Shown here: positions 25,611 through 42,457 of the stretch, one piece after another | Position numbering within the stretch: the stretch's first letter is position 1 | Layout: each line of letters opens with the position of its first letter | Assembly: GCA_021824635.1 (NCBI GenBank) | Contig: JAKAKD010000001.1 | Coordinates: 2,351-66,350 of the forward strand | Direction of reading: 5' to 3' | Source: Bacteroidota bacterium | Lineage (GTDB): Bacteria; Bacteroidota; Ignavibacteria; Ignavibacteriales; Melioribacteraceae | DNA length: 64,000 bases | Notes under the pieces: model-generated | Databases searched by the model: none | What the model was told of the DNA's origin: nothing | Seen by the model: only the letters and a program-made list of their open reading frames with translations | Program-made: the position numbers and the translations under genes

Positions 25611-25857
25611 ATATATACTTATTTAATTAGGAAATAGCTAAATTTTGACTGAAAAAATAAGGCGGAATTTTTCAAAAAGCAAATTATATTCTATATCAAA
25701 TTGTTCCTAATTCATATTGGTATTTTATCTGTATATATAACTTCTAAAGAGCAGCCAGTTTAACTGTTGAAACATGCTTCTTTGAGCTTAATTTGAATAG
25801 CCCTTCCTAAATGTTTATCTTTGCCACTAAATTTAGATGTGGAGTGAAATTAAGTTT

Positions 25858-27624
25858 ATGAAGTTTAATAAAAGAACACACACTTGTGGAGAGTTAAGAG
25901 AAACAAACATTGGTCAAAATGTTGTTTTAAATGGTTGGGTTGCAATACGCCGTGATCTTGGCGGAGTAATTTTTATTGAGATGCGTGACCGTCATGGAAT
26001 AACTCAAGTTGTGTTTGAACCAAACTATAATTTAGAATCGCATGAGCAAGGGAAAAAATTACGAAGCGAGTATGTAATTTCTATAGAAGGTAAAGTTAGA
26101 AAACGCCCTGAAGGAACCGAGAACCTTTCGTTACCTACCGGACAAATAGACGTTATGGTAGATAAACTGATTATTCTTAATCAAGCAGAAACTCCGCCAT
26201 TCCCAATAGAAGACGGAATTGATGCACATGAAGATCTGCGTCTAAAATATCGTTATCTGGATCTTCGTCGAAATGAAATGCAAAAAAATCTTTTGCTTCG
26301 GCACCAGATGTATCAAATCACAAGGAAATACTTCGATGCGAATGGCTTTGTTGAAGTTGAAACTCCGATTTTAATGAAAAGTACCCCCGAAGGCGCGCGC
26401 GATTTTTTAGTCCCGAGCCGCATGCATAAAGGGAAATTTTATGCTCTACCGCAATCACCGCAGACTTACAAACAAATTTTAATGGTTGCCGGTATTGACA
26501 GATATTTTCAAATTGTAAAATGTTTCCGTGATGAAGATTTACGTGCCGACCGACAATACGAGTTTACACAGATAGACGTAGAAATGTCTTTTGTTGATGT
26601 TGAAGATATATTTGAAATAGTTGAAGGATTGATGAAAAACTTTTTCAAAGAAATTCTTAACCTAGAAATTGTTTCTCCAATTCCTCGTTTAAGTTTTAGT
26701 GAAGCTATGGAAAAATATGGAAGTGATAAACCAGACCTCCGCTTTGCGCTTGAAATGGTTACGCTAAATGAAGTTTTTGCAAAATCTGAATTCAGAGTTT
26801 TCAAAGAATCTGTGGCAAACAACGGAATTATAACAGCATTACTTGCAAAAGGATGTGGAGATTATACTAGAAATCAATTGGATGTTCTTACCGACTTTGT
26901 AAAAAAACTTGGTGCGGGCGGCTTAATCTGGATGCGTGTGAAAGAAAATGAACTTGAAGCGCCAATAGCAAAATTCTTATCTAGTGAAGAAAAAGAAAAT
27001 TTAATTAAGAAAATGAATGCTGAACCAGGAGATCTTTTATTTATTCTAACTGGTCCTAAACTTAAGACCCTTTCTTTAATGGGTTCATTACGTTTGGAAA
27101 TGGCTAAGCGAATGAATTTGATATTGCCCGGTGCAAAGCCATCTTTACTTTGGGTTACGGATTTCCCATTATTCGAGTGGGATGAAGAAACAAAACGGCT
27201 ATATGCAATGCACCATCCCTTTACTTCGCCTAGGGTAGAAGATATTCCTCTAATGGAAACAGATCCGTCAAATGTTAAAGCGCGTGCATATGATTTGGTA
27301 ATGAATGGAAATGAAATTGCGGGTGGAAGTATTCGAATTCACGATTCTGTTTTACAGTCAAAGATGTTTAAAACATTGGGAATTAGTGATGAAGAAGCCC
27401 AGGAGAAGTTTGGATTTTTGATGGGCGCATTCAAATATGGCGCTCCTCCTCATGGAGGTATAGCATTCGGTTTTGACCGGTTAGCTATGCTCTTTGCCGG
27501 AAGGGCTTCAATTAGAGATGTGATTGCATTCCCCAAAACTTCAAGCGGTATATCTTTGATGGATGAATCACCTTCTACAGTTGATGATTCACAATTAACA
27601 GAGCTACATATTAGAATCAAATAG
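25858..27624 (+). CDS. aspS: aspartate--tRNA ligase
   Basis: OB-fold N-terminus (CGELR...V.L.GWV...RD.GG.IF), motif 2 FRDEDLRADRQ.EFTQ and motif 3 GGIAFGFDRL. The track start at 25837 is also possible. Confidence 0.93.
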   Translation: MKFNKRTHTCGELRETNIGQNVVLNGWVAIRRDLGGVIFIEMRDRHGITQVVFEPNYNLESHEQGKKLRSEYVISIEGKVRKRPEGTENLSLPTGQIDVMVDKLIILNQAETPPFPIEDGIDAHEDLRLKYRYLDLRRNEMQKNLLLRHQMYQITRKYFDANGFVEVETPILMKSTPEGARDFLVPSRMHKGKFYALPQSPQTYKQILMVAGIDRYFQIVKCFRDEDLRADRQYEFTQIDVEMSFVDVEDIFEIVEGLMKNFFKEILNLEIVSPIPRLSFSEAMEKYGSDKPDLRFALEMVTLNEVFAKSEFRVFKESVANNGIITALLAKGCGDYTRNQLDVLTDFVKKLGAGGLIWMRVKENELEAPIAKFLSSEEKENLIKKMNAEPGDLLFILTGPKLKTLSLMGSLRLEMAKRMNLILPGAKPSLLWVTDFPLFEWDEETKRLYAMHHPFTSPRVEDIPLMETDPSNVKARAYDLVMNGNEIAGGSIRIHDSVLQSKMFKTLGISDEEAQEKFGFLMGAFKYGAPPHGGIAFGFDRLAMLFAGRASIRDVIAFPKTSSGISLMDESPSTVDDSQLTELHIRIK

Positions 27625-27794: not shown

Positions 27795-27872
27795 TCAACT
27801 GGAGCGTAATCGTAATTCTAAAATAGAATTTAACGGAAAAAATTACCAGCTATAGTTTTCTTGGAGATGTTT

Positions 27873-28265
27873 GTGGGTCAGCAACAGTTATTATTACTTG
27901 CACTTGGTGTTATTGTTATTGGTATTGCAATTGTTGTTGCCATCGGCGTATTTAATGCGAGCGCAATGGAATCTAACCGGGAAGCAGTAATTGCAGACTT
28001 AACAAACATTGCTTTAACGGCACAACAATATTATAGGAAAGCAGCAATTTTAACTGGCGGTTCTAATTCATTCACCGGTTGGATAATTCCACCTGGTTTG
28101 TTACAGACATTAAATATGAGTACTGCGGTAACTGCCACAATAGCCGCTCAATCGGTAACTTTAGTTGGTCTTGGTACGGAAATAGGCAAAAATGGTTCTT
28201 CTGTAGTTGGAGTAACAATGGTTGTTGGACCGAATGCGATTATTTCAACAACTGTAAATAATTAA
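27873..28265 (+). CDS. atypical type IV pilin-like protein A (N-terminus MGQQQLLLL)
   Basis: GTG 27873 is preceded by GGAGA at 5-6 nt spacing and gives the same N-terminus as paralog B. A ~25-aa hydrophobic helix is followed by an amphipathic segment (REAVIADLTNIALTAQQYYRK) and a Thr/Val-rich beta region. The track start at 27861 adds MEMF. Confidence 0.65.
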   Translation: MGQQQLLLLALGVIVIGIAIVVAIGVFNASAMESNREAVIADLTNIALTAQQYYRKAAILTGGSNSFTGWIIPPGLLQTLNMSTAVTATIAAQSVTLVGLGTEIGKNGSSVVGVTMVVGPNAIISTTVNN

Positions 28266-28323
28266 GATTTGTTTTAATTATATCACTTTCAAATGTGTAC
28301 TAAGAATATTTTAGAATAATTTA

Positions 28324-28339
28324 TGGCACAGTTAATGAT
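28324..28339 (+). promoter_or_regulatory. weak candidate sigma54-type element upstream of pilin-like gene B
   Basis: TGGCACAGTTAATGAT has a perfect -24 TGGCAC, but the -12 reads TGA rather than TGC. It lies about 99 nt upstream of ATG 28438. Confidence 0.3.
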
Positions 28340-28437
28340 TTATAAAATAAAGGGAAATATCTTTACACAAATTTATATAATTAATACGGGTTCTATTTTC
28401 TTTTAACTAATCAACAACAATAAAAGGAGTTACAAAA

Positions 28438-28827
28438 ATGGGTCAACAACAATTATTACTTATCGTTCTCGGCGTTATCATTGTCGGTATCGCTGTTGTA
28501 GTTGGTATCAATGTTTTTACCGCAAGTGCGGCTTCATCCAACCGTGATGCAGTTATTGCTGATTTAACAACAATTGGTTCCATGGCACAAGGATATTACA
28601 GAAAACCAACAGCGCTTGGTGGCGGAAATAATACATTTACCGGTTGGGTAGTACCGGCACAATTAGCACAAACATCAAACATGAGTGCAGCTGTTACACC
28701 AACTGTTGCAGCACAATCGGTAACTCTTGTTGGTGTTGGCACAGAAACAGGCAATGACGGTTCTACCAAGGTTAAGGCTACTATGACGGTAACACCTACT
28801 GCTATGACAACAGTAGTAGATAATTAA
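28438..28827 (+). CDS. atypical type IV pilin-like protein B (N-terminus MGQQQLLLI)
   Basis: The ATG is preceded by AAGGAG at 8-nt spacing. An in-frame TAA 30 nt upstream excludes a longer leader. About 60% identical by eye to paralog A. No Cys residues. Confidence 0.75.
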   Translation: MGQQQLLLIVLGVIIVGIAVVVGINVFTASAASSNRDAVIADLTTIGSMAQGYYRKPTALGGGNNTFTGWVVPAQLAQTSNMSAAVTPTVAAQSVTLVGVGTETGNDGSTKVKATMTVTPTAMTTVVDN

Positions 28828-28855
28828 TTTTTAATTGGAATTTTCTTAAATTGAA

Positions 28856-28886
28856 AGCCGGTAGAACATAGTCTATCGGCTTTTTC
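28856..28886 (+). terminator. intrinsic terminator/attenuator between pilin-like gene B and the PilC-like gene
   Basis: AGCCGGTAGA / TCTATCGGCT 10-bp stem followed by TTTTTC. Confidence 0.7.
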
Positions 28887-28907
28887 ATTTAATAAAGAAA
28901 TATCACA

Positions 28908-30251
28908 ATGATTGAAACTAGATTTACTGCGCAAAAGCCAAACGGTCAAAGTATTAGTGGAAGTTTTAGTGAACCTTCATTTGGTGAAGCTAAGAAAAAG
29001 ATTCAAAAATTTGCCGAAAAAAATCAGCTCAAAATTCAAAAAATTGAGAAGAAAGTCGGCTACGTTTATAAAATTAAACGCGGTAAAGAAAAACCGATCA
29101 CAGGCGAACAGAGAGCTTTCAATAAAGATGAGGTTGTAAATGCTCTTCGTAAACTTGGCTACGAAGTAATCTCGGTCAATAGAAAATATTTAGAATTTAA
29201 TTTCAAACCACCACAGCAAGATATCGTTTCGTTTGTAAAAATAAGCGCGGAACTGTTAGAGCAAAAACTACCTTACAGTGAAATTCTAACTTTACTTATC
29301 AATGATACCTCGAACAAATCTCTCAAAGAAGCTCTAAAGCAGATTAACAATGAACTGAAAAAAGGCGCTGATAGTGAAACCACTTTTTTGCGTTATCAAT
29401 CTGTGTTTGGAAAGTTCACCGCATATATGCTTGGTTTAGCATCGAAGAGCGGTAATATGTCGGAAATTTACAAAGCAACCGCAAAGTTTTTAGAAAGACA
29501 GCAAGAGTTTAAAAAGAATTTGCGAAGCGCGCTTATTACTCCAATGGTAACTCTGTTTGTGCTTTTTCTTGCGGTACTATTTTATGTGGGATATATTTTT
29601 CCGGCAACAGCAAAGCTGTTTGTAAAGTTTGATATACCTTTGCCGCCAATGACGGCAGCTACCTTGAAGATCAGTAATTTTCTAATGGCGAATGGTTTAT
29701 TAGTAACGATTGTTTGCTTAGCCCCGCCGATTGCGATTTGGCAATTTAGTAAAACAAAAAAAGGGAGATTATTTTTTGATCGCTATATGCTCAAGATACC
29801 TGTTATGGGTTCCCTAATTCATAAAACATGTATTGAAGTTTTTTGCCGCGTATTTTATACTTTATATAGCGGTTCAGCCGAAAGCATAGAACCCATTCGA
29901 ATTGCAGCCGAAGCTACCGGAAATGTATATTTTGAACAGCAGATAAAAAACATTGCAATTCCTTTAATGATTAAAAAAGGTGTTGGAATAACGGAATCAT
30001 TTGAAGCTAGCGGAGTATTTACCGAAACTGCATTATCAAGATTTCACTCCGGCGAAGAAACCGGAACAATTAAAAATACCGCTTTTCAGCTGGCAAATTA
30101 TTATGAAAGTGAAACAGTATTCAGATTAAAAAACGTTATTGAACTTATTCAAGTTGGAATAGCAATGGTTATTATGATAGTGATGATTGGACTTACTCTA
30201 ATATCGGCTGAAACAGCAACCATTAATCCAAAATCACCATCAATGAAATAA
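28908..30251 (+). CDS. pilC: type IV filament platform protein (PilC/GspF family)
   Basis: Two T2SSF-type repeats separated by TM segments, with a third TM at the C-terminus. The N-terminal cytoplasmic region is of the GspF type (F.A....G....G). Confidence 0.8.
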   Translation: MIETRFTAQKPNGQSISGSFSEPSFGEAKKKIQKFAEKNQLKIQKIEKKVGYVYKIKRGKEKPITGEQRAFNKDEVVNALRKLGYEVISVNRKYLEFNFKPPQQDIVSFVKISAELLEQKLPYSEILTLLINDTSNKSLKEALKQINNELKKGADSETTFLRYQSVFGKFTAYMLGLASKSGNMSEIYKATAKFLERQQEFKKNLRSALITPMVTLFVLFLAVLFYVGYIFPATAKLFVKFDIPLPPMTAATLKISNFLMANGLLVTIVCLAPPIAIWQFSKTKKGRLFFDRYMLKIPVMGSLIHKTCIEVFCRVFYTLYSGSAESIEPIRIAAEATGNVYFEQQIKNIAIPLMIKKGVGITESFEASGVFTETALSRFHSGEETGTIKNTAFQLANYYESETVFRLKNVIELIQVGIAMVIMIVMIGLTLISAETATINPKSPSMK

Positions 30252-30274: not shown

Positions 30275-32062
30275 ATGATTGATGCTCAGCTTGAAATGAC
30301 CGATAAGATTGGTTACTTGCTCTTAAAGAAAGGAATAATTGATCACAAAATTTTAGAAGAATCTCTTAAAATTAAAGATGCCGATCAGACAAAGTTGAAA
30401 AGAAATCTTGCACAGATTTTAGTTGATGAGTTTAAATTTGACCACGATATTATTTTTAGAGAAGTTGCAGTACTCTACGCGTTCAAAGAATTAAATGTCC
30501 GTCCGGAAGAACTTTCCGATGAACGTATTGCAGAAATAAAAAACTTGATGACCCGTCAAGGCGACGATGTAAAAAAAATGCTTCTTACTCACCGGGTAAT
30601 TCCATTCAGATACGACGATAAAATTAAAGATAAGTTAATTCTTGCGGCAGTTGATCCCACAGACAGAAATCTTGCTAAAGTTGCTTATACCTTAAACGTA
30701 AAAAAATACGAAATAAATTATCTTCGAAAAAAAGATTACGATAAACTAGTTGCAATTCTTGCACCGACTGAAAATGAATATCTAAAAATGATTCAAGAAG
30801 CTGGTGAAGAGATTCAAGTAGTTCAAGATGAAGCTTCGGTTAATGAAGAAGAACTTGATGCAGAAATTAATAAGAGCGCACTTGTAAACCTTATTGAAGC
30901 AGCGTTGGTCGAGGGAACCCGTAAAGGTGTCAGCGATATTCATTTAATTCCCAAGTCCGGAAATAAAACAGAAATTCATTTCCGTCTTGATGGAAAATTA
31001 ATGCTTTGGCATACACAAGAAGGAACTTTACCGGAAGCTGTTATGGCAGTTGTAAAAGATAGATCAAAAGGGCTCGATCGTTTTGAACGTGAAAAAGCTC
31101 AAGACGGCTTTATTCAGCGTGAAATAGATGGACACATAATTCGTTACAGAGTTTCTGTTTTACCTATGGTGGGAACTGAATTAAAAAATAAATTTGAAAG
31201 CGTTGTAATAAGAATTCTAGACGATAGAAAAGTAATACGCGATCTAGGCAAACTTGGCCTTACCGGTTATGCGCATACTGCTTTTGCTAAAGCAATTAAT
31301 CAACCGCAGGGAATGATTATTCTAACAGGTCCAACCGGAAGCGGAAAATCAACCACTCTTGTTGCCGCTTTATATCAAGTTATCACGCCGGAAAAAAATG
31401 TTCTTACAGTAGAAGATCCAGTAGAATATGTTATTGAAGGCGCTCGGCAGTTAAAGATTGGCTACAAAATGAATTTTGAACAAGCAATCAGATCAATTCT
31501 ACGTCACGATCCGGACATTGTTCTGGTTGGTGAAATGCGTGATAAAGAAACAGCAGAGACAGCTATAAAGCTTGCAAACACAGGTCACTTAACTTTCTCA
31601 ACACTTCACACCAACGATGCACCAAGTGCCGTTGCGCGTTTGTTCAAAATGGGTGTAGAACCATTTTTGATTGCTTATGCAATTAATATTATTGTTGCTC
31701 AACGTCTCATAAGAAAACTTTGTGAGAACTGTAAGAAAAAAGTTACAAACCTAGAAGAACATATTCTTCCTTCCGGTCTAGACATTAAAGAATGGACCGG
31801 CGCCGAAATTTATGAAGCTGTTGGATGCGATAGATGTAATCACACAGGATATAAAGGCAGAATGGCAATTCATGAAGCACTCTATTTCACAAAAGAAATC
31901 AGAAGAGCAATTGTTCAATCTGGAGAAGATGTTGATGAGGAAGCAATTCGTACACAGGCAAGACTGGATGGAACTATGAGTTTGAGAGATTCCGGCTTTG
32001 AAAAAGTTAAACTTGGATTAACCTCAATCCAGGAAGTTATTGGCGCAACGATGGAAGACTAA
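30275..32062 (+). CDS. pilB: type IV filament assembly ATPase (PilB/GspE family)
   Basis: Walker A GPTGSGKST, Walker B DPDIVLVGEMRD, His box TGHLTFSTLHTNDA and a tetracysteine CENC...CDRC. The N-terminal T2SSE_N-like domain carries a degenerate MshEN-type motif. Confidence 0.9.
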   Translation: MIDAQLEMTDKIGYLLLKKGIIDHKILEESLKIKDADQTKLKRNLAQILVDEFKFDHDIIFREVAVLYAFKELNVRPEELSDERIAEIKNLMTRQGDDVKKMLLTHRVIPFRYDDKIKDKLILAAVDPTDRNLAKVAYTLNVKKYEINYLRKKDYDKLVAILAPTENEYLKMIQEAGEEIQVVQDEASVNEEELDAEINKSALVNLIEAALVEGTRKGVSDIHLIPKSGNKTEIHFRLDGKLMLWHTQEGTLPEAVMAVVKDRSKGLDRFEREKAQDGFIQREIDGHIIRYRVSVLPMVGTELKNKFESVVIRILDDRKVIRDLGKLGLTGYAHTAFAKAINQPQGMIILTGPTGSGKSTTLVAALYQVITPEKNVLTVEDPVEYVIEGARQLKIGYKMNFEQAIRSILRHDPDIVLVGEMRDKETAETAIKLANTGHLTFSTLHTNDAPSAVARLFKMGVEPFLIAYAINIIVAQRLIRKLCENCKKKVTNLEEHILPSGLDIKEWTGAEIYEAVGCDRCNHTGYKGRMAIHEALYFTKEIRRAIVQSGEDVDEEAIRTQARLDGTMSLRDSGFEKVKLGLTSIQEVIGATMED

Positions 32063-32132: not shown

Positions 32133-33359
32133 TTGATGATTGCAGATGCAAAACAAGTCCTCACGGCATTTACCACAAAAATTCCTACAACTATCTTAGG
32201 TCCGGAAAGAGTTCGATATATTATCGAGCATATTAACGAACTTCAAGTTGAACAAAAAATGCTTCTGCTTAATTTAATGAATGATATTTTGGGGATGATG
32301 ATTGAACGTCAGGCATCGGACATTGAAATCGGAGGATTCGGCGCTCAAAATTTTGTATGGATGAGAATATTTGGAAAAAAAGAACGCGTAAAAGATCTTC
32401 CTCAGTTTTCCGAAGATGAAGCATCAACACTAATAATTTCTTTGTTGAACAAGACCCAATGCGAGATGCTTTTATCGGAAAGGAATTTGGATTTTAGTTA
32501 TTCTTTCAAGTATGATAAAGTTCAAGCTGTAGTTCGTTTTCGTGCAGATGCTTATTTTGATCTTGATAGTGTGGCTTTAAATATGCGTTATATACAAGCC
32601 AGAATTCGTCCAATTGAATCTCTCGAATTTCACCCATTCGCAATTAAAATGATGAGCCACAATTACATAAAGTTTGGGCTATCATTAATAACTGGAATTA
32701 CCGGTTCTGGTAAATCCGCCACACTTGATGCAATTATTGATTATCACAACGATTCCGATCCTTGTCATATTGTAGTTATTGCTTCGCCTGTGGAGTTTGT
32801 CCACAAATCACGCGCGTCAATTATCAAGCATAGAGAAGTTGGAAGAGACGTAACGTCATTCAAAGATGGAGTAATTCAATCATTACGCCAGGATCCGGAC
32901 ATAATAGTAATTGGAGAAATGCGCGATCCGGAGACTATTCTATCGGCGCTGGAAGTTACAGATACCGGACACAAAGTCTTTTCAACACTTCACACATCAT
33001 CTGCCACCGAGTCCATTGATAGAATAGTTGCAGAAATACATCCAACTGAACAAGAACGTGTTAGGAATAGGCTGGCAGATGTCTTAATTTCGGTAGTTTC
33101 TCAGAAGCTTATACCTAGTTTAGACGGCAAACGTGTTCTTGCAAAAGAGGTTCTAATTGTTACTCCTTCTGTTAAAGCGGCAATTAAGAATAACAATACA
33201 AGTGAAATTTACATGATGATTAATCAAGGTGCTCCGCAAGGCATGATTACGATGGAACAAGATTTGCTACGTTTATATGCGGAAAGGAAGATTTCTAAAG
33301 AAAATGCTGTCTCTTATGCCAATAATAAAACAAGAATTTTACAATTGATGAAAGGGTAA
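32133..33359 (+). CDS. PilT/PilU-like hexameric ATPase (putative retraction motor) with N-terminal extension
   Basis: Walker A GITGSGKSAT, Walker B DPDIIVIGEMRD and His box TGHKVFSTLHTSSA. No tetracysteine. 408 aa versus about 345 for canonical PilT. Confidence 0.75.
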   Translation: MMIADAKQVLTAFTTKIPTTILGPERVRYIIEHINELQVEQKMLLLNLMNDILGMMIERQASDIEIGGFGAQNFVWMRIFGKKERVKDLPQFSEDEASTLIISLLNKTQCEMLLSERNLDFSYSFKYDKVQAVVRFRADAYFDLDSVALNMRYIQARIRPIESLEFHPFAIKMMSHNYIKFGLSLITGITGSGKSATLDAIIDYHNDSDPCHIVVIASPVEFVHKSRASIIKHREVGRDVTSFKDGVIQSLRQDPDIIVIGEMRDPETILSALEVTDTGHKVFSTLHTSSATESIDRIVAEIHPTEQERVRNRLADVLISVVSQKLIPSLDGKRVLAKEVLIVTPSVKAAIKNNNTSEIYMMINQGAPQGMITMEQDLLRLYAERKISKENAVSYANNKTRILQLMKG

Positions 33360-33360
33360 G

Positions 33361-34917
33361 TTGAAACAGGTTGTATGTCTATATAATGAAGGAACCGATG
33401 CAAAAGTTGCTGTTTTATCCAAAGATAATAACGGCGTCAAAGTTCACCGTGTATCGTCTTTAACGGTATCGCGTTCAATCATATCTTCTTCTAAAAAAGA
33501 AGTAATGGTTGAACTAGAAAATAATGTGATGGATACCGATTTGTCTTTCGATAACCTGGAATCAGTAAGTACTGTAGATTCTCAATCGCGCGAAAGAGCA
33601 GATGTTGAGTTGCTTGACGAAGCTTTACATGATTTGAAATTGCGTAATATGCTCTTCATTCCTGTAGTAACCGAACCGATAGTAAACTACCATTCATACG
33701 ATGGACCGCGCAGTATAAATAAGAAAAAATTAATTCAGTCGGTAATTAACGATCTTCAAGCAACCAAAGGAATTTCAGTAACTGAGGACTTGGTTGATGT
33801 TACCGAAATGAATGAAAAATCAATGCTTGGAGTTTTTCTTGAAGGAGATATGCCCAGTGTTGATTTGATAGGTCAACTTGCTAATTATAATAAAAGGCGT
33901 TACCTAAAAATTCCAACAATAAAAACCGCTGAACTTTCTCTTGCTTATTATGTCTCAAAATCAACAAAATTTTTCCCCGAGGATAACTCGCTTATTGTTT
34001 ACATTGGAAAAGAATACAGCAAACTAATTTTTCTTGAAGGACAAAAATTAAAACATATCGGTTCGCCTTTAGACATCGGTACAAAGAATCTTCATACATA
34101 CGATGTTTATTTTTCTAAGATTCTACTCGAAATGGAAAACGGCGGTATTCCGAAACTCGATAATATTATTCTTTGCGGCGAAGACCGATCAGAAAATTTA
34201 ATTCTTTCCTTCTATGGAACATTTCCGGAAGCGAATGTATCGGAACTAAAATTTGAGAATTTCGATTCAACAGGACTTAACGAAGAAGATCAGAAAAATC
34301 TTGCTCTATACGCAGTTCCAATTTCGGCCGGTATCGAATATTTTGATGAATTAGATAAGACACATGTTGGTGTAAATTTTCTTCCAAAATATATTCAAGA
34401 GAATCAAAAGTTTTTACAATTCGGATGGCATAGCTACGCATTAATGCCATTCTTATTCGGCGCGGCATTCTTCTTTACTTTCAAAACACTTTCCAATTTT
34501 AGAAATATAAAAGAATTGGATTTTGAAATTGAACGGCTTAATCAGCGACAAATACAAAATCAAGCACTTGTTCAACAAATTACTCCGCTCGAAACTCGAA
34601 TAAATAGTTTTGATGCAACACAGAAAATTATTGATGATGCCAGCGAAGGCGCGGGGTTGTGGAATAAGTCTCTTGGCAAGATTTCTGATTTTGCTGAAAC
34701 GAGAAGAAATTTCTGGGTTAGCAAAATCGAACCGATTTCTAAAGACGAAATTAAACTTACCGGATATTCATTATCCCGAAGTGTTCTGACTGAATTTGCC
34801 GGCATTAATAAAGCATCGCTTCTAAAAAATATCAATTTTGAACCGCTAAGAGAGAAGAGCGCTTTCTCATATACACTTAATTTAAGATTACAAAACGATA
34901 CTACGAAGACTAAATGA
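33361..34917 (+). CDS. PilM-PilN-like fusion protein (actin-like cytoplasmic domain, TM, coiled coil)
   Basis: A ~350-aa cytoplasmic N-terminal domain is followed by a single TM (YALMPFLFGAAFFFTF) and a coiled-coil/periplasmic segment (EIERLNQRQIQNQALVQQI). Position and architecture match the PilM plus PilN roles. Sequence motifs are weak. Confidence 0.5.
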   Translation: MKQVVCLYNEGTDAKVAVLSKDNNGVKVHRVSSLTVSRSIISSSKKEVMVELENNVMDTDLSFDNLESVSTVDSQSRERADVELLDEALHDLKLRNMLFIPVVTEPIVNYHSYDGPRSINKKKLIQSVINDLQATKGISVTEDLVDVTEMNEKSMLGVFLEGDMPSVDLIGQLANYNKRRYLKIPTIKTAELSLAYYVSKSTKFFPEDNSLIVYIGKEYSKLIFLEGQKLKHIGSPLDIGTKNLHTYDVYFSKILLEMENGGIPKLDNIILCGEDRSENLILSFYGTFPEANVSELKFENFDSTGLNEEDQKNLALYAVPISAGIEYFDELDKTHVGVNFLPKYIQENQKFLQFGWHSYALMPFLFGAAFFFTFKTLSNFRNIKELDFEIERLNQRQIQNQALVQQITPLETRINSFDATQKIIDDASEGAGLWNKSLGKISDFAETRRNFWVSKIEPISKDEIKLTGYSLSRSVLTEFAGINKASLLKNINFEPLREKSAFSYTLNLRLQNDTTKTK

Positions 34918-35801
34918 GCAGCAAAGTTAAAAATACAATCATCATTCTGGTAATCTTTATTATGATCGGGCTCAGTAGCGTTGCGTATAACTTTGTTTAT
35001 CAAAAAGCGAAAATAAGCGAGAAGCAGAAAAAAATTAAAGACCTAAAACTTTATCAGCTTGATACCGAATCATTGAATATGCAGCTTGCTTTATTAACAA
35101 AACGTGTTGCAGAACTGGATTCTGTTTTAGCAAACAGAAAGTACAACATTCCATTCAACGTGTCTCAAGCTTCTTTCTTCGATTTTGTAAATCAAGTCAG
35201 CTATGGTTTCTCGTCACATTCATATGTCAATATTGAGTTCAATGAAACAGAGACCGGAACGAATTTTAATATTTTTCACTACACATTAAACGGCATTGCA
35301 GAATTCAACGATCTGATAAAATTAATTTATGCTATTGAAGAGAGTAAGCAGTTAAAGAAAATCGAATCACTTGAATTGTCTAACAACGTTCAAGTTGATG
35401 CCGATGGCACTCCTCATTATTTGGTCAATTATAAATTTAAGGCCAAAATTTATTTCTCCTCGGATAATAGATTTTTTGTAAAGGATTTGAAAGAGAATTC
35501 TATTATTCCTAATCCGGCATACGATTTCTTCTATCCGTTAATCCGAAATGAAATACCGCCTAACAAAGATAAATTGCTGGATGTTCAATCCGCCCAGTTG
35601 TTAGCATTAATACCAGACGGAGCGTTCCTGGTTGATGCTAGCGGAAATACTTATCTATTGTGGGAAGGTGATCAGGTTTATCTGGGATATCTTACTAACA
35701 TAAATTACCAGAATACCGAAGTGAATTTTGTTCTGAATAAAGGCGGCATCATTGAGAATGTTACTTTGAAACTAGTAAAAGAAAAAAAACTGAGTAAATA
35801 A
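34914..35801 (+). CDS. PilO-like bitopic alignment-complex protein
   Basis: N-terminal TM (IIILVIFIMIGLSSVAY), a coiled coil (KISEKQKKIKDLK...LALLTKRVAELD) and a periplasmic domain. It overlaps the upstream gene by 4 nt. Confidence 0.45.
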   Translation: MSSKVKNTIIILVIFIMIGLSSVAYNFVYQKAKISEKQKKIKDLKLYQLDTESLNMQLALLTKRVAELDSVLANRKYNIPFNVSQASFFDFVNQVSYGFSSHSYVNIEFNETETGTNFNIFHYTLNGIAEFNDLIKLIYAIEESKQLKKIESLELSNNVQVDADGTPHYLVNYKFKAKIYFSSDNRFFVKDLKENSIIPNPAYDFFYPLIRNEIPPNKDKLLDVQSAQLLALIPDGAFLVDASGNTYLLWEGDQVYLGYLTNINYQNTEVNFVLNKGGIIENVTLKLVKEKKLSK

Positions 35802-35802
35802 A

Positions 35803-37056
35803 ATGAAAAAGCTAATTACAATTTTAATCCTATTCGTGTTAACGTTTACTGTTAACGCGCAGATTGATTTACAAGATAAATTAAAGGGTGCCGTAAACCC
35901 GGATGAACTGGTTTCACTTTCCGAAACAATTACATTTGATCAAGCTATTCAAGTGCTGAGTAAGGTAAGTGAAAAAATCACCGGCAAAAAAATTATCTCC
36001 ACTGTTAATCTTACAACTCCCATTGGAGTAGAAATTGACAAATGGCCATATAAAAAAGCACTCTTCGTTATTGTCCAATATAACAATCTAATAGTTGATG
36101 AAACCGAATCCACTGTAATTATTAAAAGAAAAGATGAATCCAAAACTAAATTAGCAAAAGAAACTTACGCTCCCATAGATGAACGAGAAGTTAAAATTTC
36201 TGCTGTGCTCTTCGAAGCGAATATTGATGATCTTCGTGAAAGAGGAATTAACTGGGAATTTCTGCTGTCCCAATCTGGTCTTTCAATCGGAACTAAAATA
36301 ATTACACTGCAAGAACAACAGCAGCAACAAGCATCCTCGGCGACAAGTACAACAATAATTCAAAAACCACCAACGTATGAAATTAATAACAGTACAAATT
36401 TTACAACGGGTAAATGGGATGGAACAGCTACCGGGTTATTCAGATTTTTAGAAACAAATAACTTAGGAGAAATTATTGCTCGTCCTATAATCACAGCAAG
36501 AGATGGTGTTGAAGGCAAAACACAAATTGGCAATGACTTTTCAATAAAAGAAAGAGATTTTGCAGGTAACCTTATAGATAAATTTTATCCGACCGGAACT
36601 ATCATTACCGCCACGCCGCACATCTTCAATGAACAGGGAATAACTTACGTTCTTCTTAAATTAAATATTGAACGAAGCAGTGTAGTTGCAAGAGACGCTC
36701 TTAGTACGAATGTAAGCAAAAATGTTGTAACCACAGACGTTCTTCTTCTAGACGGAGAAGAAACTGCTATCGGCGGCTTGTTTGAAAATCAAGAAATTTC
36801 AGTCCGCAGAGGAATTCCATTTCTAAAAGATCTTCCTTGGTGGGTATTCGGTATTCGCTATTTAACCGGCTACGATTCTCAAGAGACAGTCAGAAAAGAA
36901 GTTATTATGCTAATCAAAGCGGAATTGCTGCCGTCACTTAAAGACAGAATCGAAAAAATTAAAGAAGATTCCGCGTTGCGTGATATACGTCAGGAGAATT
37001 TTGATAAGATGGAGAAATACAAAAAGCAGTTTGAGAAAAAAGAAGACCCAAAATAA
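35803..37056 (+). CDS. short secretin (type II/III secretion system secretin family, PilQ-like)
   Basis: Signal peptide and a C-terminal secretin domain (ETAIGGLFENQEISVRRGIPFLKDLPWWVFGIRYLTG...VIMLIKAELL). It is only 417 aa and carries a QEQQQQQASSATS linker. Confidence 0.8.
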   Translation: MKKLITILILFVLTFTVNAQIDLQDKLKGAVNPDELVSLSETITFDQAIQVLSKVSEKITGKKIISTVNLTTPIGVEIDKWPYKKALFVIVQYNNLIVDETESTVIIKRKDESKTKLAKETYAPIDEREVKISAVLFEANIDDLRERGINWEFLLSQSGLSIGTKIITLQEQQQQQASSATSTTIIQKPPTYEINNSTNFTTGKWDGTATGLFRFLETNNLGEIIARPIITARDGVEGKTQIGNDFSIKERDFAGNLIDKFYPTGTIITATPHIFNEQGITYVLLKLNIERSSVVARDALSTNVSKNVVTTDVLLLDGEETAIGGLFENQEISVRRGIPFLKDLPWWVFGIRYLTGYDSQETVRKEVIMLIKAELLPSLKDRIEKIKEDSALRDIRQENFDKMEKYKKQFEKKEDPK

Positions 37057-37210: not shown

Positions 37211-40200
37211 ATGAAACTTAATTACCGTTTAATATTGATAACTCTTTTAATCGTTCTATTCATCTCGGTTATTTCAACTTTCATATTCTATTCGCTAGCC
37301 GGCAGACTATTAATGCAGCAGCAATCCAAGAATATTCTTAACTCTGCAAACGACTTTGCTTTTGTTTTTCAAAATGAACTTAGCAAAGTAGAAGAAGATT
37401 TTAAGAAAATTGCGCCGCGTATAAACAAATTCGACCAGATAAATTTAGATTCTACCGCAATAGATTTTTGTTTTACACTCGTAAACGACTCACTTATTAA
37501 TACGCACGAGTTCAAGATTAAAACCAAATCATATCTGAATATACGATCATCATCGTTCCGCCAGTTCTTCTCGGATAATCCAAATGTTGTTCTAAGATAT
37601 GCACAATTCCCAAGCGGTAGAACAGTTTATTACGGCAATCAAATATCATCGGATTTTCTAAACCGCATTTCGCAAAAAATTCGGGCGGAAGTTGCGCTTG
37701 TAATAAATGATTCCCCGGTTGAAATTTCCAATCCAGATAAAAATCAGATTCACCTTCTGGCGGTTATAAATGCCGTACGCGAATTAAAATTTAAAAACAG
37801 CTTCGATCTTTACACTAACGAATATGAAAACGCAGATTTTTATGCCGCGCTCTTTTTGCCAAAATCTTTTCTTACGCCCGGCGCTAAATTAAATTTTATT
37901 GTCTTCAATGTTTTTAAGGAAGGCGTAGAATTTCGCGACACTTTACGGATTGTAATGGTTATTATTGTAATTGCCGGAAGCGCAATTACATTTCTTATAG
38001 TTTTAGGATTCACCATCAAATTGAGAAAACAAATTTCACTACTTAGTGAAGCTGCCGAGATAACAGGAAAAGGAAATCTAGACCACAGGGTAAAAATAAT
38101 TACGAAAGATGAAGTCGGCAGACTAGGCGAGACTTTTAATAAAATGCTCGATGAACTTGTGCTGAATAAGAAGAATGAAAAAGAATATTCGGAATTTATT
38201 ACTCTCATCAATCAAAATCCGACAATGAAAGAAATATCGGATGCGGCACTAGCAAAAATTATCAAATCCACGGGCTTAACTTTTGGTGTGTTGTATATTG
38301 TCGAAAATAAAGCGCTTAGGTTAATTTCATCTTTTGGCGTTAGTCAAAATATTGTTGAGATGACACAAAATGCCGATCTATACAGTAATGCCATTGATAA
38401 AAAAGAGAAAGTTGAATTTCATTTTCACGATAACTTCCCCGAAATAAAAACCGGCATAGCTACAATCAAAATAAAATATTTAACCATTTATCCGATTGTT
38501 TATAATAAGGAAACAATTGCAGTGCTTGAACTTGCTTCGGAATCGGCTCCTCGTGAAGAAGTTCTGAATTACATATCTATTATTCATGACCAGCTTGCCG
38601 TTGGAATTACTAATGCAAAATCGTTTGAACAGCTCGAAAATTTTGTAAACGAATTGAAAAAACTAAACGAAGAATATCAGAAACAAAATCAGCATATAAT
38701 TGAGCAGAACAGTCAGTTAAAAGAACTTCACAGAGAATTGAAAGAGAAAGCGGGCGAATTAGAAAAACAAAGAGCCAAGGCGGTTGAACTGACTAGAGTG
38801 AAGTCGGATTTTCTTGCAAGTATGTCGCATGAACTCCGCACACCGCTGATATCAATTCTTGGCTTAACAGAATTGCTGATTAAAGATACGCTCGTTACAT
38901 CAAGAACAAAGGACCGCCTAAATATCGTTCACCGCAACGGCGAAAAACTTCTTGGGCTTATTAATAATATTCTCGAGTTCTCAAAATTTGAATCGGGCAA
39001 GATTGAAATTAAAAAAGAAAGCTTCTTGCTAAGCGATCTTCTCAAAGAATTAAATCCAAATATCAAACATCTAACATCAGAGAAGAACCTTAAATATATT
39101 TTGGAAATTGAAAACAACTCAAATGCATTAATAAATTCCGATAAGGGCAAATTGGAACAAATACTTCTCAATTTACTTGTCAATGCAGTTAAGTTTACGG
39201 AAAATGGTTCGATTAAATTATCAGTAAATATTTTGAGCGGGAAAGATATTGAGTTTATTGTTACAGACACCGGAATAGGAATTACCGAAGAACAACAAGA
39301 AGTAATATTTGGCGAGTTCCGTCAAGTTGACAGCAGCACTGCAAGAAAATATGGCGGCGCGGGATTGGGACTGGCTATTTGTAAAAAGTATATTGAATTA
39401 TTAGGTGGCGTTCTACAACTAAAAAGTGAAATCGGGAATGGGTCGAGTTTTTATTTCACATTATCAGATTCTGTGCTCGATGTTTTTGATAATCCTGATC
39501 ATAAATTTTTAACCCTTTCGGAAGATCTTAATGACGACGAAGATGCAGAATTAATATTAATCATTAATGCCAATACGGATTCTCTAAGACTTATCGGCGA
39601 TTACCTCGCATCGTATAACTATAGAATTATAACTACAGCCAGCAGCACAGACGGAATCCGCTTAGCGAAAGAAAAACTCCCGGCAGCAATTGTTCTGGAT
39701 CCTCTAATTCACGATCAAAATGTTTGGAATATCATTCTTGAACTAAAAAACAATTTAACAACGCGGAATATTCCGATCATTATTACAATGATTATTGAGG
39801 AAGAGAAAGTAGGTTGGGAGCCGGAAATTTTTGATTTTATCTCTTCCCAAGTTGAGCGTGATGATTTTGAGAATCTGATTAAAGAAGTTGAGTTACATTT
39901 TGATAATCAAATTCGGAAAATTGTAATTCTAGAGAAAGATGATACCGGTTATAAAAAACTTGTAAATATTTTCGGTGAGAAGTATGAATTCCTATTGTTG
40001 AATTCAGTAGACGCGGTTAAACAAAAGATTAAAGAAGAGAATCCGCAGCTGATTTTAATTGATATGGAATCGTTCAATATAGAAGCTCTGCAGGTAAGTT
40101 TTGATTTGTCCCGGCAAAGATTCACTAAAAATATTCCAATCGTTTTTAAACTTCCTGGTGAGTTTGATGACAAACTAAGTAAAGCGCTCAATTCAAAATT

Positions 40201-40753
40201 GAGAGAAATAACATTGAAAATAAAAGCTCACCCTTTGGATGTTCTGAAAATATTGCGTGACCGCTTAAAAATTGACGATGATACAACAAACAAAAAAATT
40301 AATTTAATTGAAGAACCGTTCCAGAAGAATGATCCGGAGCAGTACAGCAAGAGTATTGAATACAACGCGAAAACCAAACCGACTATTCTTATTGTTGATG
40401 ATGATAATGATGCGCTTTTTACCATCGGAGAATTTGTAAAAGAATTAAACTGCGATACAATTTTTGCCCACAATGGAATGGAGTGTTTGTTAACACTTAA
40501 CCATGTTCAGCCGGATCTAATATTTCTTGATATAATGATGCCGCAGATGGACGGTTTTGAAACTATCAAGCGGATCCGCGGTGATGAGAAATTCGCCAAA
40601 ATTCCGGTTATTGCTTTAACTGCATATGCAATGCTTGATAATAAAAATATTATTGAAAAAAATGGTTTTAATGATCTGGTGACAAAACCGATTAATTCTA
40701 AAATCCTTGCCGCCAAGATGAGTAAATTCCTTTTATCTAAAGTTGATAAATAA
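37211..40753 (+). CDS. large hybrid sensor histidine kinase (2 TM periplasmic sensor, HAMP, GAF-like, HisKA, HATPase_c, two degenerate REC-like domains, one canonical REC)
   Basis: HAMP (ITGKGNLDHRV...DEVGRLGETFNKM), H-box SHELRTPL, G-box DTGIGI...GGAGLGLAICK and C-terminal REC (ILIVDDDND...DLIFLDIMMPQMDG...K). The two central receiver-like modules lack the acidic pocket. Confidence 0.85.
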   Translation: MKLNYRLILITLLIVLFISVISTFIFYSLAGRLLMQQQSKNILNSANDFAFVFQNELSKVEEDFKKIAPRINKFDQINLDSTAIDFCFTLVNDSLINTHEFKIKTKSYLNIRSSSFRQFFSDNPNVVLRYAQFPSGRTVYYGNQISSDFLNRISQKIRAEVALVINDSPVEISNPDKNQIHLLAVINAVRELKFKNSFDLYTNEYENADFYAALFLPKSFLTPGAKLNFIVFNVFKEGVEFRDTLRIVMVIIVIAGSAITFLIVLGFTIKLRKQISLLSEAAEITGKGNLDHRVKIITKDEVGRLGETFNKMLDELVLNKKNEKEYSEFITLINQNPTMKEISDAALAKIIKSTGLTFGVLYIVENKALRLISSFGVSQNIVEMTQNADLYSNAIDKKEKVEFHFHDNFPEIKTGIATIKIKYLTIYPIVYNKETIAVLELASESAPREEVLNYISIIHDQLAVGITNAKSFEQLENFVNELKKLNEEYQKQNQHIIEQNSQLKELHRELKEKAGELEKQRAKAVELTRVKSDFLASMSHELRTPLISILGLTELLIKDTLVTSRTKDRLNIVHRNGEKLLGLINNILEFSKFESGKIEIKKESFLLSDLLKELNPNIKHLTSEKNLKYILEIENNSNALINSDKGKLEQILLNLLVNAVKFTENGSIKLSVNILSGKDIEFIVTDTGIGITEEQQEVIFGEFRQVDSSTARKYGGAGLGLAICKKYIELLGGVLQLKSEIGNGSSFYFTLSDSVLDVFDNPDHKFLTLSEDLNDDEDAELILIINANTDSLRLIGDYLASYNYRIITTASSTDGIRLAKEKLPAAIVLDPLIHDQNVWNIILELKNNLTTRNIPIIITMIIEEEKVGWEPEIFDFISSQVERDDFENLIKEVELHFDNQIRKIVILEKDDTGYKKLVNIFGEKYEFLLLNSVDAVKQKIKEENPQLILIDMESFNIEALQVSFDLSRQRFTKNIPIVFKLPGEFDDKLSKALNSKLREITLKIKAHPLDVLKILRDRLKIDDDTTNKKINLIEEPFQKNDPEQYSKSIEYNAKTKPTILIVDDDNDALFTIGEFVKELNCDTIFAHNGMECLLTLNHVQPDLIFLDIMMPQMDGFETIKRIRGDEKFAKIPVIALTAYAMLDNKNIIEKNGFNDLVTKPINSKILAAKMSKFLLSKVDK

Positions 40754-40756
40754 AAA

Positions 40757-41437
40757 ATGAAAAAAATATTAATAATAGATGATTACCCGGATAATGTTTT
40801 TCTTCTTCAAGACAGACTTGAAAAGGAAGGATTTGAAGTGATAAAGGCATATCACGGTGAAACTGGAATCCAAAAAGCGATTGAAGAAAAACCTGATCTG
40901 ATCCTTTTAGATATCATGATGCCCGATATTTCAGGTTTTGAGGTTTGCAAAATATTGACAGCAAATCAAGAGACAAAGTTAATTCCGATAATTCTTCTTA
41001 CCGCGTTGACCGAAGCCGATAGTCTTAAACAGGGTTTGTCGGCAGGCGCATTCGATTATATTAAAAAACCTTTTAACAGAACAGAACTTATTGCAAGAAT
41101 TAATTCCGCTCTGCGTTTTAGTGAAACAAATAAGATACTTCTTGAAGTAGAAAAGATAAAGACCTACGCCGCAACTGTTGTTACCGCTAATCACGAAATA
41201 AAACAGCCGCTCACTTTAATTAATTTATCTACAGCGGCAATCCGCCGGGAAATATCCAAACCGGACTTCTCCAATGAAGTTATATTGAAGCGAGTTGAAT
41301 TTATTGAAAACGCCGCAAAAGATATTATCAACGTGTTGGATAAACTCGGTTCGATTAAAAAACCTGTAATTACTCCTTACGTAAATGATCTCAACATAAT
41401 AGATTTAAAAGCTGTGGAAGGAAAGTTACCCAATTAA
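40757..41437 (+). CDS. response-regulator receiver fused to a HisKA-like (DHp) domain, without an ATPase domain
   Basis: Canonical REC (ILIIDDYPDN, DLILLDIMMPDISG, KP) followed by an H-box-like TANHEIKQPLTLINL. The ORF ends about 75 aa later with no N/G boxes. Confidence 0.75.
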   Translation: MKKILIIDDYPDNVFLLQDRLEKEGFEVIKAYHGETGIQKAIEEKPDLILLDIMMPDISGFEVCKILTANQETKLIPIILLTALTEADSLKQGLSAGAFDYIKKPFNRTELIARINSALRFSETNKILLEVEKIKTYAATVVTANHEIKQPLTLINLSTAAIRREISKPDFSNEVILKRVEFIENAAKDIINVLDKLGSIKKPVITPYVNDLNIIDLKAVEGKLPN

Positions 41438-42457
41438 TTCGCGTACCAGCGAAAGTAACTCTTCAAAGTTGTATGGCTTGTTTATAATTTTATTCACATT
41501 AACTTTATCAATCTTGCCGCTATCTGTAGGCGAACCCGAAGCGAGAATAATTGGAATATTGTAATTCGCAGATGAAATTTCTTGAATGCATTCAAGTCCG
41601 TCCATTTCTGGCATTTTTCTGTCAATAATCAATAAGTCGGGCATTCTAACTTTTAACGTTTCCAAAACTTCAATTCCGTTAGAAGAAGTAAGAACAGTGT
41701 AATTATATGATTGGAGAAGTTCCGCAAGAAGTTCTCTCAGTATATCTTCATCTTCAGCAATCAATATTGTTTTCCCGCTGTCGTTAGAGTGCTGTGTTGC
41801 CGTGTGTGCAGCTTCTAGAGTGAGTATAAACTCAGTGCCTTTCTCAGGTTCACTTACAACAGCAATTGTTCCGCCGTAATTCTCAATAATCTTTTTTACA
41901 ATTGATAAACCGATCCCGGACGCGGTCTTTTTAGCTTTTGTGGAAAAATCTTCATCAAAAACAAACGGAAGAATCTCTTTATCAATTCCTTTCCCGCTGT
42001 CTTTAATTCGAAGTTCAACTCTCGTCCCGTCATCTATATTTGATGTGGTAAAAGAAATAACTCCCGTTGTATCAATTGATTCGATAGAATTTGTCAGCAA
42101 ATTGAGAATAACCCGGTAGTAGTCAGAATATTTTCCGAGTACAAGTTTTAGATCCGGTTCGAGAGTCAGCTTAAAATCAATTTTTCCTTTTTGCTGAATC
42201 AAAAATGAACGGACAATATCGCTTGTAACTGAATTTAAATTTATTCTTCTAAGATTATTGTTTTTGGATTTATCGCCAAAATTATCGCCTATCATTTCTG
42301 ACGCAAGGTAAGTTCCGGCTTCTATACTGTTGAGGATTGGTAGAATATCTGATGAACTTGAGACTTTTCTTTTTAGAAGATCGATACTATTTAGAATGCG
42401 TGTGAAAATATTATTTAAATCGTGTGCAAGATGTTTTGTGGATGAATCGGTGCTCAT
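41426..42457 (-). CDS. soluble hybrid histidine kinase (HisKA, HATPase_c, REC) without a sensor domain
   Basis: H-box LAHDLNNIFTRIL at the extreme N-terminus, G-boxes DSGKGI and ASGIGLSIVKKIIENYGG, and C-terminal REC (ILIAEDEDIL, DLLIIDRKMPEMDG). No TM. Confidence 0.85.
   Translation of the reverse strand: MSTDSSTKHLAHDLNNIFTRILNSIDLLKRKVSSSSDILPILNSIEAGTYLASEMIGDNFGDKSKNNNLRRINLNSVTSDIVRSFLIQQKGKIDFKLTLEPDLKLVLGKYSDYYRVILNLLTNSIESIDTTGVISFTTSNIDDGTRVELRIKDSGKGIDKEILPFVFDEDFSTKAKKTASGIGLSIVKKIIENYGGTIAVVSEPEKGTEFILTLEAAHTATQHSNDSGKTILIAEDEDILRELLAELLQSYNYTVLTSSNGIEVLETLKVRMPDLLIIDRKMPEMDGLECIQEISSANYNIPIILASGSPTDSGKIDKVNVNKIINKPYNFEELLSLVRELIG

Follow-up and report, generated by a model that had tools for sequence, protein, structure and literature searches.

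Can a type IV pilus be built from subunits that are synthesized without a leader peptide? Four parts are held to be common to all type IV filament systems, namely, a pilin, a prepilin peptidase, an ATPase, and a platform protein, and the class III signal peptide with which pilins are synthesized is said to require cleavage (PMC4471445). The question is raised by a 64,000-nucleotide stretch of DNA (hereafter, the window) from a member of the Melioribacteraceae (Bacteroidota, Ignavibacteria; assembly GCA_021824635.1, contig JAKAKD010000001.1, forward-strand positions 2,351 to 66,350). Two tandem genes in it, referred to here as A and B, stand at the head of a pilus gene cluster and encode small proteins that begin with Met-Gly-Gln-Gln-Gln. 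We consider it fairly probable that A and B are the filament subunits (the major pilins, or a major pilin and a variant) of the type IVa-like machine encoded downstream and that they are made leaderless. On our best reading, what is new here is that a type IVa-like machine is paired with subunits that natively lack a leader.

Because a TAA at 28408 closes the reading frame upstream of gene B, and no ATG, GTG, or TTG lies in that frame between 28408-28410 and the ATG at 28438, the gene B product must begin MGQQQLLLIVLG. For gene A, three possible starts in the same frame fall within 12 nt (27861-27875), and two of these, both 3' of the upstream stop, would extend the product: ATG 27867 gives MFVGQQQ and TTG 27861 gives MEMFVGQQQ. 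Only GTG 27873 gives the N-terminus of the family described below. Since the in-frame ATG and TTG exist, the start of gene A was set by family comparison and not by its own sequence. Automatic gene callers may add a false three- or five-residue extension to gene A. The two products, MGQQQLLLLALG... (A, 130 aa, from GTG 27873) and MGQQQLLLIVLGVIIVGIAVVVGINVF... (B, 129 aa), are 64% identical over their full length, contain no cysteine, and have their first acidic residue at E33 (A) and D37 (B). The original prediction had taken the N-terminus of B to be fixed by the sequence, read the same MGQQQLLLL start for A from its GGAGA and GTG, estimated the identity at about 60% by eye, and noted the lack of cysteines and of acidic residues in the N-terminal helix region. 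All of these readings held, although it was silent on ATG 27867 and TTG 27861. An identical protein is already recorded from a Melioribacteraceae metagenome-assembled genome (MAG).

The short N-terminus is shared by a large family. Matches numbered 4811 when clusters at 90% identity were searched and 2066 when those at 50% identity were, 1242 of the latter at E ≤ 1e-10. All 120 close homologues listed from the 90%-identity clusters start with MG, and the MGQQQ(L/I)LL start occurs in all of them and in almost all of the 150 listed representatives of the 50%-identity clusters. Gly2 is near-invariant, being present in 113 of 113 MG-starting representatives, with Ala, Glu, or Ser in single cases only among the 150. 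Counted from Met, position 5 is Gln in 108 of 113 representatives, Glu in three, Asp in one, and Lys in one. When one genome per species was scanned, at least 460 encoding stretches were found; the locus counts given here rest on the best 79. Nearly all of these 79 loci are labeled Ignavibacteria or Bacteroidota, together with single MAGs labeled Calditrichaeota, Rhodothermaceae, Chitinophagales, and Deltaproteobacteria. The family is centered on Ignavibacteria. Many members are named "Tfp pilus assembly protein PilE" by the Joint Genome Institute pipeline, which is a source's label and not a test, and the NCBI name is hypothetical protein in every named record among the matches listed.

The start codons were counted in the 79 related loci and the window, where 147 pattern matches, two of them spurious, left 145 family genes. 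Gly is directly preceded by a start codon in 145 of 145 (ATG in 115, TTG in 16, and GTG in 14), and the median distance from there to the first in-frame stop upstream is 4 codons, indicating that the missing leader characterizes the family itself and is no artifact of annotation. A longer precursor from an upstream start was also ruled out, since the stops lie so close to Met and 140 of the 147 pattern matches have no alternative in-frame start after the upstream stop. A Shine-Dalgarno-like motif was present at 121 of the 147. The shared MG start is not due to chance, and A and B are real genes. What had been predicted from two genes, namely, an MGQQQLL N-terminus that should be sought in other genomes, the lack of a leader, and the lack of Phe+1 and Glu+5, was thus recovered across the family. 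Two tandem copies are carried by 46 loci, one copy by 28, and three copies by eight. When loci were compared, the genes in second position were 61% alike and those in first position 51%, against 47% for genes in first position compared with genes in second position; this signal is only modest, and a division of the tandem copies into two ancient orthogroups was not adopted.

The second line of evidence is the genomic context. A PilB ATPase, PilC, PilT, and a secretin, which together define a type IVa machine, are all encoded at one locus immediately downstream of genes A and B (Table 1). Between pilT and the secretin gene lie genes for two proteins of 518 aa and 295 aa (p518 and p295), neither of which had a Pfam match. 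The 518-aa protein is soluble in its N-terminal half, contains a single hydrophobic segment (at about residues 355-375) and a C-terminal domain, and is conserved in synteny. Among the related loci, the small gene is present as one, two, or three tandem copies directly 5' of pilC-pilB-pilT-p518-p295-secretin, and the same order is found in the complete genome of Melioribacter roseus. Under a strict test, pilC lay within 1.5 kb downstream of the small genes in 51 of 65 loci; about 54-56 of the 65 (approximately 85%) were linked once a more distant pilC or a direct link to p518 was counted. All six machinery genes were present in 42 of the 55 loci having at least 9 kb of downstream sequence. The position at the head of an operon with an ATPase/secretin cassette is therefore conserved across Ignavibacteria. 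In many related loci, genes for a histidine kinase and a response regulator come after the secretin gene, as they do in the window.

Table 1. Positions of the features discussed in the text, numbered from the first nucleotide of the window.
Feature	Position	Strand	Remarks
Aspartyl-tRNA synthetase gene (aspS)	25837-27624		Directly 5' of gene A
Ribosome-binding site of gene A, GGAGA	27863-27867	+	5 nt 5' of GTG; read from sequence
Gene A, pilin-like subunit without leader	27873-28265	+	130 aa; GTG start; MGQQQLLLL...; start chosen by family comparison
Putative sigma-54 -24/-12-like motif, TGGCAC-N5-ATGA	28324-28338	+	Between genes A and B; -12 element off-consensus
In-frame TAA 5' of gene B	28408-28410	+	10 codons before ATG; closes the reading frame
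Ribosome-binding site of gene B, AAGGAG	28424-28429	+	8 nt 5' of ATG 28438
Gene B, pilin-like subunit without leader	28438-28827	+	129 aa; ATG start; better conserved of the pair
13-bp hairpin, then U-tract	28853-28890	+	Directly 3' of gene B; -22.3 kcal/mol; z = -5.2; 0/200 shuffles fold as well
PilC/GspF-type platform protein	28908-30251	+	447 aa; Pfam T2SSF 2.4e-29; NCBIfam HofC, PilC, and GspF below cut-offs
PilB-type assembly ATPase	30275-32062	+	595 aa; Pfam T2SSE 1.1e-102; best NCBIfam model type IV-A PilB, 404 bits, below cut-off
PilT-type retraction ATPase	32133-33359	+	408 aa; TIGR01420 pilT_fam, 326 bits, above the 319.1 cut-off
Putative PilM-PilN-like fusion (p518)	33361-34917	+	518 aa; Amuc_1101 PilM-like family, weak, E = 4e-4
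PilO-like protein, judged by position (p295)	34914-35801	+	295 aa; bitopic; N-terminal transmembrane helix; no family match
Secretin	35803-37056	+	417 aa; signal peptide; Pfam Secretin 4e-21; PilQ/GspD models below cut-offs
Hybrid histidine kinase	37211-40753	+	3' of the secretin gene
Response regulator	40757-41437	+	End of the cluster
Two sigma-54-dependent activators and three more histidine/hybrid kinases	41426-42457, 42459-43802, 56793-58283, 60701-62074, 62085-63584	-	
DUF5916 protein	2218-4395	-	
FG-GAP repeat protein	11208-13412	+	
546-aa protein	13409-15049	+	No family match
CarboxypepD_reg/Plug TonB-dependent receptor	58416-60704	+	

The predicted architecture of the subunits is that of a pilin in outline. 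The gene B product is laid out as an MGQQQ cap (residues 1-5), a hydrophobic helix (6-27), an amphipathic helix (to residue 55), a GGG-N-x-F-x-G-W loop, and a four-stranded sheet. The stretch L6-F27 is uncharged and hydrophobic (Kyte-Doolittle maximum 3.3), is predicted to be helical, and fits pilin alpha1-N (approximately 21 residues). AlphaFold2, supplied with a 25-sequence alignment, predicted a helix over residues 3-55, a loop with the conserved GGG-N-x-F-x-G-W-x-x-P motif, and four consecutive beta-strands; the predicted local distance difference test (pLDDT) score was 88.8 for the full-length model and 92.2 for a head-only model. Conservation, calculated over 102 representatives as the mean frequency of the commonest residue per segment, was 0.95 in the MGQQQ cap, 0.74 in the hydrophobic helix, 0.51 in the amphipathic helix, 0.50 in the loop, and 0.39 in the sheet. 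Such a fall from the N- to the C-terminus is the pattern that would be expected if the N-terminal helix were an assembly interface, and not if it were a passive membrane anchor.

The head domain (from about ANRDA to the C-terminus) also appears as a reusable extracytoplasmic module, perhaps for binding, in homologues of other build. P0123 has five copies of it in tandem after a Sec signal peptide; in others the head follows lipoprotein signals (P0235 and P0175), zinc-ribbon or multi-transmembrane N-termini (P0143, P0190, and P0221), or a long basic signal-anchor (P0194). Because these paralogues of the head follow Sec, lipoprotein, or multi-transmembrane N-termini, the head is likely to work outside the cytoplasm, which supports an N-in/C-out topology for A and B.

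Compared with bacterial type IVa pilins (PilA/PilE, PF07963), A and B have a similar length (approximately 130 aa) and a similar predicted build, with a hydrophobic helix of approximately 22 residues, an amphipathic continuation, and a four-stranded antiparallel sheet. Their genes are likewise arranged in tandem at the head of a pilB/pilC/pilT/secretin cluster, their N-terminus is conserved and their C-terminus variable, and a Gly stands just before the helix. In contrast to type IVa pilins, no hydrophilic leader ends in that Gly, which is preceded by the initiator Met only in all 145 genes. The Phe/Met-Thr-Leu-Ile-Glu motif is also missing, with Gln in the place of Glu5: even if Met1 is counted as +1, which gives an allowed residue there, position 5 is Gln. 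A and B further differ in having no disulfide-bonded C-terminal loop, as they lack Cys, no linked prepilin peptidase or minor pilins, and no hit from the N_methyl or TIGR pilin models. Three hallmarks of class III pilins, namely, a leader, Glu5, and the N_methyl motif, were looked for and not found, and membership of A and B in the class III pilin family is not supported.

Archaeal type IV pilins and archaellins, EppA substrates included, share with A and B a frequent lack of Glu5 (PMC4471445), Gln after Gly, and short leaders. Archaeal precursors nevertheless carry a basic leader and are served by an A24 peptidase (PibD, FlaK, or EppA), whereas A and B have the Gly-Gln junction but no basic leader, and no A24-type peptidase is encoded nearby. 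The machine beside A and B is also unlike the archaeal one, being of the bacterial type IVa pilus (T4aP) type with PilT and a secretin. In mannose-sensitive haemagglutinin (MSH) loci, which have no peptidase of their own, one is borrowed from another system for normally led class III pilins (PMC6668835). In contrast, A and B offer nothing to cleave.

The prepilin peptidase itself was not detected in the window or in related loci. Pfam found no Peptidase_A24 domain among about 50 open reading frames of the window, and a phmmer search with E. coli GspO, which covered the window and 1.27 Mb of related-locus DNA (10 kb either side of the pilin-like genes at 79 loci), gave no homologue. A scan for canonical class III N-termini (G[FM..][ST]L.E) gave no hits in the window and related loci and four in an E. 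coli gsp control. In the genome paper of M. roseus, pilT, pilQ, pilB, and pilC were found and pilA and pilD were not (PMC3534657). The missing pilA of M. roseus is very probably the leaderless family, represented there by MROS_0599 and its upstream neighbor, and the family would thus account for this gap in the annotation. In M. roseus P3M-2 (CP003557), the secretin gene is split into open reading frames of 74 aa and 338 aa in different frames (L002:17333-18576), and a near-identical metagenome copy has an intact gene for a 414-aa secretin (L001:17331-18575). The split may be a frameshift or a sequencing error; if it is real, the laboratory strain may be non-piliated.

How could such subunits be assembled? 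We tentatively suggest, with rather less confidence than we place in the subunit role itself, that the type IV pilus of Ignavibacteria is retractile and is built from subunits already mature at birth, that is, without a leader, a prepilin peptidase, or a salt bridge between Glu5 and the N-terminus, the Gln triplet taking over the core contacts. The subunits would be translated at mature length as an initiator Met, Gly-Gln-Gln-Gln, and a 22-residue uncharged hydrophobic helix, with no basic leader. SRP (signal recognition particle) and Sec would insert this helix N-in/C-out, placing a head of roughly 100 residues in the periplasm. PilC and PilB would then lift the subunit from the membrane without a cut by prepilin peptidase, and such extraction would be possible because nothing charged lies on the cytoplasmic side. 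The N-terminal helices would pack into the filament core, with the polar, uncharged Gln3-5 occupying the place of the canonical salt bridge between Glu5 and the N-terminal amine. PilT would retract the fiber, and the secretin would form its exit through the outer membrane.

The N-terminus of such a subunit may keep formyl-Met, keep Met, or lose Met to leave Gly1. Met-Gly is a good substrate for Met excision. For subunits born mature, it is conceivable that the N-terminus is neutral or small, carrying either a retained formyl-Met or the Gly left after excision. Deformylation is blocked when SRP is bound to a nascent signal sequence (PMC5454389), and a retained formyl-Met is therefore conceivable on subunits of the A/B type. 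As a formylated N-terminus is uncharged, Glu5 would be unnecessary.

Three registers against canonical pilins are possible. If Met1 is taken as +1, Gln5 falls on Glu5, and Glu or Asp stands there in four of 113 representatives. If Gly2 is taken as -1, Gln becomes +1 (offset 2); this is the register that the original prediction had in mind, and it is only one of the three. An offset of 3 may be read from a non-significant alignment with Geobacter PilA-N. Rare members (P0180 at L086:10001-10390, P0271, and P0272) start MGTKELLF and thus have Glu at position 5 from Met. These variants fit the register in which Met1 is +1, yet they are orphan genes beside crcB and arginine-biosynthesis genes, away from the pil clusters. 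A homologue search from P0180 returned five proteins and no tie to canonical pilins.

Several observations weigh against a filament role for A and B or against the assembly scheme outlined above. Pfam, N_methyl included, gave no pilin family for A or B even at E ≤ 1, and the NCBIfam pilin models gave no match at E ≤ 0.01. When the family profile was aligned by hhalign with eight class III pilins and pseudopilins of E. coli (PpdD, GspG-J, and PpdA-C), the probability was 0.35%. A profile search of the PDB returned only Geobacter PilA-N among pilins (E = 0.37 and 1.6), and Foldseek searches of the PDB with the full-length and head-only models gave nothing better than E = 0.3. The type IV pilins 8v7p, 8tob, 4d40, 5vaw, and 6bbk do recur in the top 15 of these non-significant matches, 6bbk weakly, with a TM score of 0.46-0.48 over about 115 columns. 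Matches to an F17 lectin domain (Pfam/PDB E = 0.005 and 0.17) and to MacB_PCD were taken as noise. Of the pilin logic originally seen in the fold, the helix and four-stranded sheet were thus recovered by prediction, but no significant match to a known pilin was obtained. As there is no significant tie to pilins in sequence or fold, the pilin-like role rests on context, architecture, and the conservation pattern. No minor pilins were recognized in the window or within 10 kb of the pilin-like genes at the 79 loci. For a surface-exposed pilin, the whole protein is unusually conserved, with a mean column identity of 74% among 25 aligned close homologues that take in Melioribacter, Rosettibacter, and uncultured Ignavibacteria. 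Some of the proteins that contain the head domain cannot be pilins, namely, those with five tandem repeats, the lipoproteins, and the zinc-ribbon membrane proteins, and the positive-inside rule does not enforce an N-in topology because no basic residues precede the helix. The search for the A24 peptidase covered the window and related loci. A PilFind-positive, Geobacter-like canonical PilA was reported in one Ignavibacteriales MAG (PMC7399161), and for this reason it cannot be claimed that the lineage as a whole lacks class III prepilins or the peptidase that serves them.

Three other explanations were weighed against the leaderless-subunit reading. The pilins might still be processed, with an A24-type or unrelated peptidase encoded elsewhere cutting after Gly2 and removing Met-Gly; Gln would then become +1 and could cyclize to pyroglutamate, which would give an uncharged N-terminus without the need of Glu5. 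We regard both the cut and the cyclization as quite unlikely. Archaeal EppA substrates carry Gln+1, and pyroglutamate has reportedly been observed in a Methanococcus pilin. Cleavage is kept alive as an explanation by the near-invariant Gly2, which is stricter than Met excision alone requires, and Gly-1 is the sole residue that prepilin peptidases insist on (PMC4471445). The canonical PilA in the Ignavibacteriales MAG likewise implies a peptidase in some members of the lineage (PMC7399161). Known leader peptides, however, have 6-26 residues (PMC4471445), and a two-residue leader without a basic residue falls below this range. The failure to find an A24 peptidase in the window or in the related loci argues in the same direction, as does the report that pilD was not found in the complete M. 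roseus genome (PMC3534657). It is also unlikely, though slightly less so, that A and B form a short periplasmic pseudopilus only and that the machine, instead of making a surface pilus, works as a secretion piston of type II kind, exporting for example the glycoside hydrolases of these polysaccharide degraders. The highly conserved head would fit a subunit that is hidden from the outside. Nevertheless, a PilT-family ATPase scoring above the family cut-off sits in the conserved operon, whereas the classical type II secretion system (T2SS), to our knowledge, has no PilT, and the GspC, GspL, and GspM models gave no match. In the related phylum Bacteroidetes, a secretion system derived from T4aP is needed for cellulose use (PMC6668835, PMC5553014), and the M. 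roseus authors tied the genes in question to cellulose adherence and secretion (PMC3534657). The Bacteroidetes "T2SS" cluster of Cytophaga hutchinsonii (CHU_3191-3202) resembles the one described here in belonging to polysaccharide degraders of the same superphylum and in having a divergent machine of T4aP ancestry with PilM/N/O-like parts that are hard to recognize. In contrast to the Ignavibacteria cluster, it encodes a canonical major pseudopilin, minor pseudopilins, and the Peptidase_A24 protein CHU_3197 (PMC5553014); the Ignavibacteria cluster has none of these, but has PilT.

Finally, A and B could be ordinary bitopic inner-membrane proteins that never enter a filament, such as accessory or alignment proteins or periplasmic binding modules, the real pilins being encoded elsewhere or absent. 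The lack of a significant match to pilins, the reuse of the head domain in lipoproteins, repeat proteins, and zinc-ribbon membrane proteins, and the finding that about 10-15% of the family genes stand alone, with no pil cluster nearby, all speak for this explanation, which we nonetheless hold to be very unlikely. PilN, PilO, and GspM, like A and B, are small bitopic inner-membrane proteins with a periplasmic alpha/beta domain that are encoded in pilus operons. These proteins have a cytoplasmic N-tail, a transmembrane helix, a coiled coil, and a periplasmic domain of ferredoxin-like fold. A and B, in contrast, have no N-tail and are predicted to consist of one long helix followed by four consecutive strands, and PilM/N-like and PilO-like genes are already separately present beside them. 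The five-residue cap and the transmembrane helix are the most conserved parts of the family, which a passive anchor does not explain, and P0194, a clear plain-anchor paralogue, has a long basic N-tail instead. The position of pilA, the tandem copies, the strong Shine-Dalgarno site, and the terminator also argue against such a role, and no other pilin candidate was found in the window or in related loci, nor in M. roseus.

The region around genes A and B contains several candidate regulatory elements (Table 1). The hairpin directly 3' of gene B was missed by a simple consensus scan; judged from its sequence, it is a probable intrinsic terminator or attenuator before pilC. A strong Shine-Dalgarno site together with a hairpin terminator, as in gene B, is by analogy an arrangement often found in major pilin genes. 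The putative sigma-54 motif between genes A and B recurs in the form TGGCAC[GA]GGAAATGA in nine other loci (L001, L002, L004, L007, L012, L019, L053, L066, and L073), where the distance to the second pilin-like gene downstream is 144-186 nt, and the canonical TGGCA[CT]-N5-TTGC occurs upstream of family genes in L040, L057, L063, and L071. The window also encodes two response-regulator activators that depend on sigma-54, as well as another three histidine or hybrid kinases, and one pair of activator and kinase lies directly after the pilus cluster on the opposite strand; these are candidates for PilR/PilS-like control of the pilin genes. The aspartyl-tRNA synthetase gene precedes the pilin-like genes in many related loci as well (aspS-pilin-pilin-pilC...) and can serve as a convenient landmark when the cluster is sought in Ignavibacteria by synteny. 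Elsewhere in the window are genes for large envelope or surface proteins, namely, a DUF5916 protein, an FG-GAP repeat protein followed by the 546-aa protein, and a TonB-dependent receptor, and no link between these and the pilus cluster was seen.

The family was not described in any of the literature searched for pilins that lack a leader or need no peptidase, and neither Melioribacter nor Ignavibacterium is listed in the supplements of Denise et al. 2019. In hundreds of genomes the family will escape pilin finders based on the class III motif. M. roseus and Ignavibacterium album have been cultured, and the prediction of leaderless pilins is therefore directly testable. If it is true, the prepilin peptidase, which is regarded as universal in the type IV filament superfamily, would be shown to be dispensable, and what the leader is really for would become apparent. 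The Ignavibacteria would then offer a natural experiment on whether the leader serves topology, timing, or the prevention of premature assembly, on whether Glu5 is needed only because the N-terminal amine is charged, and on how the platform protein recognizes its substrate.

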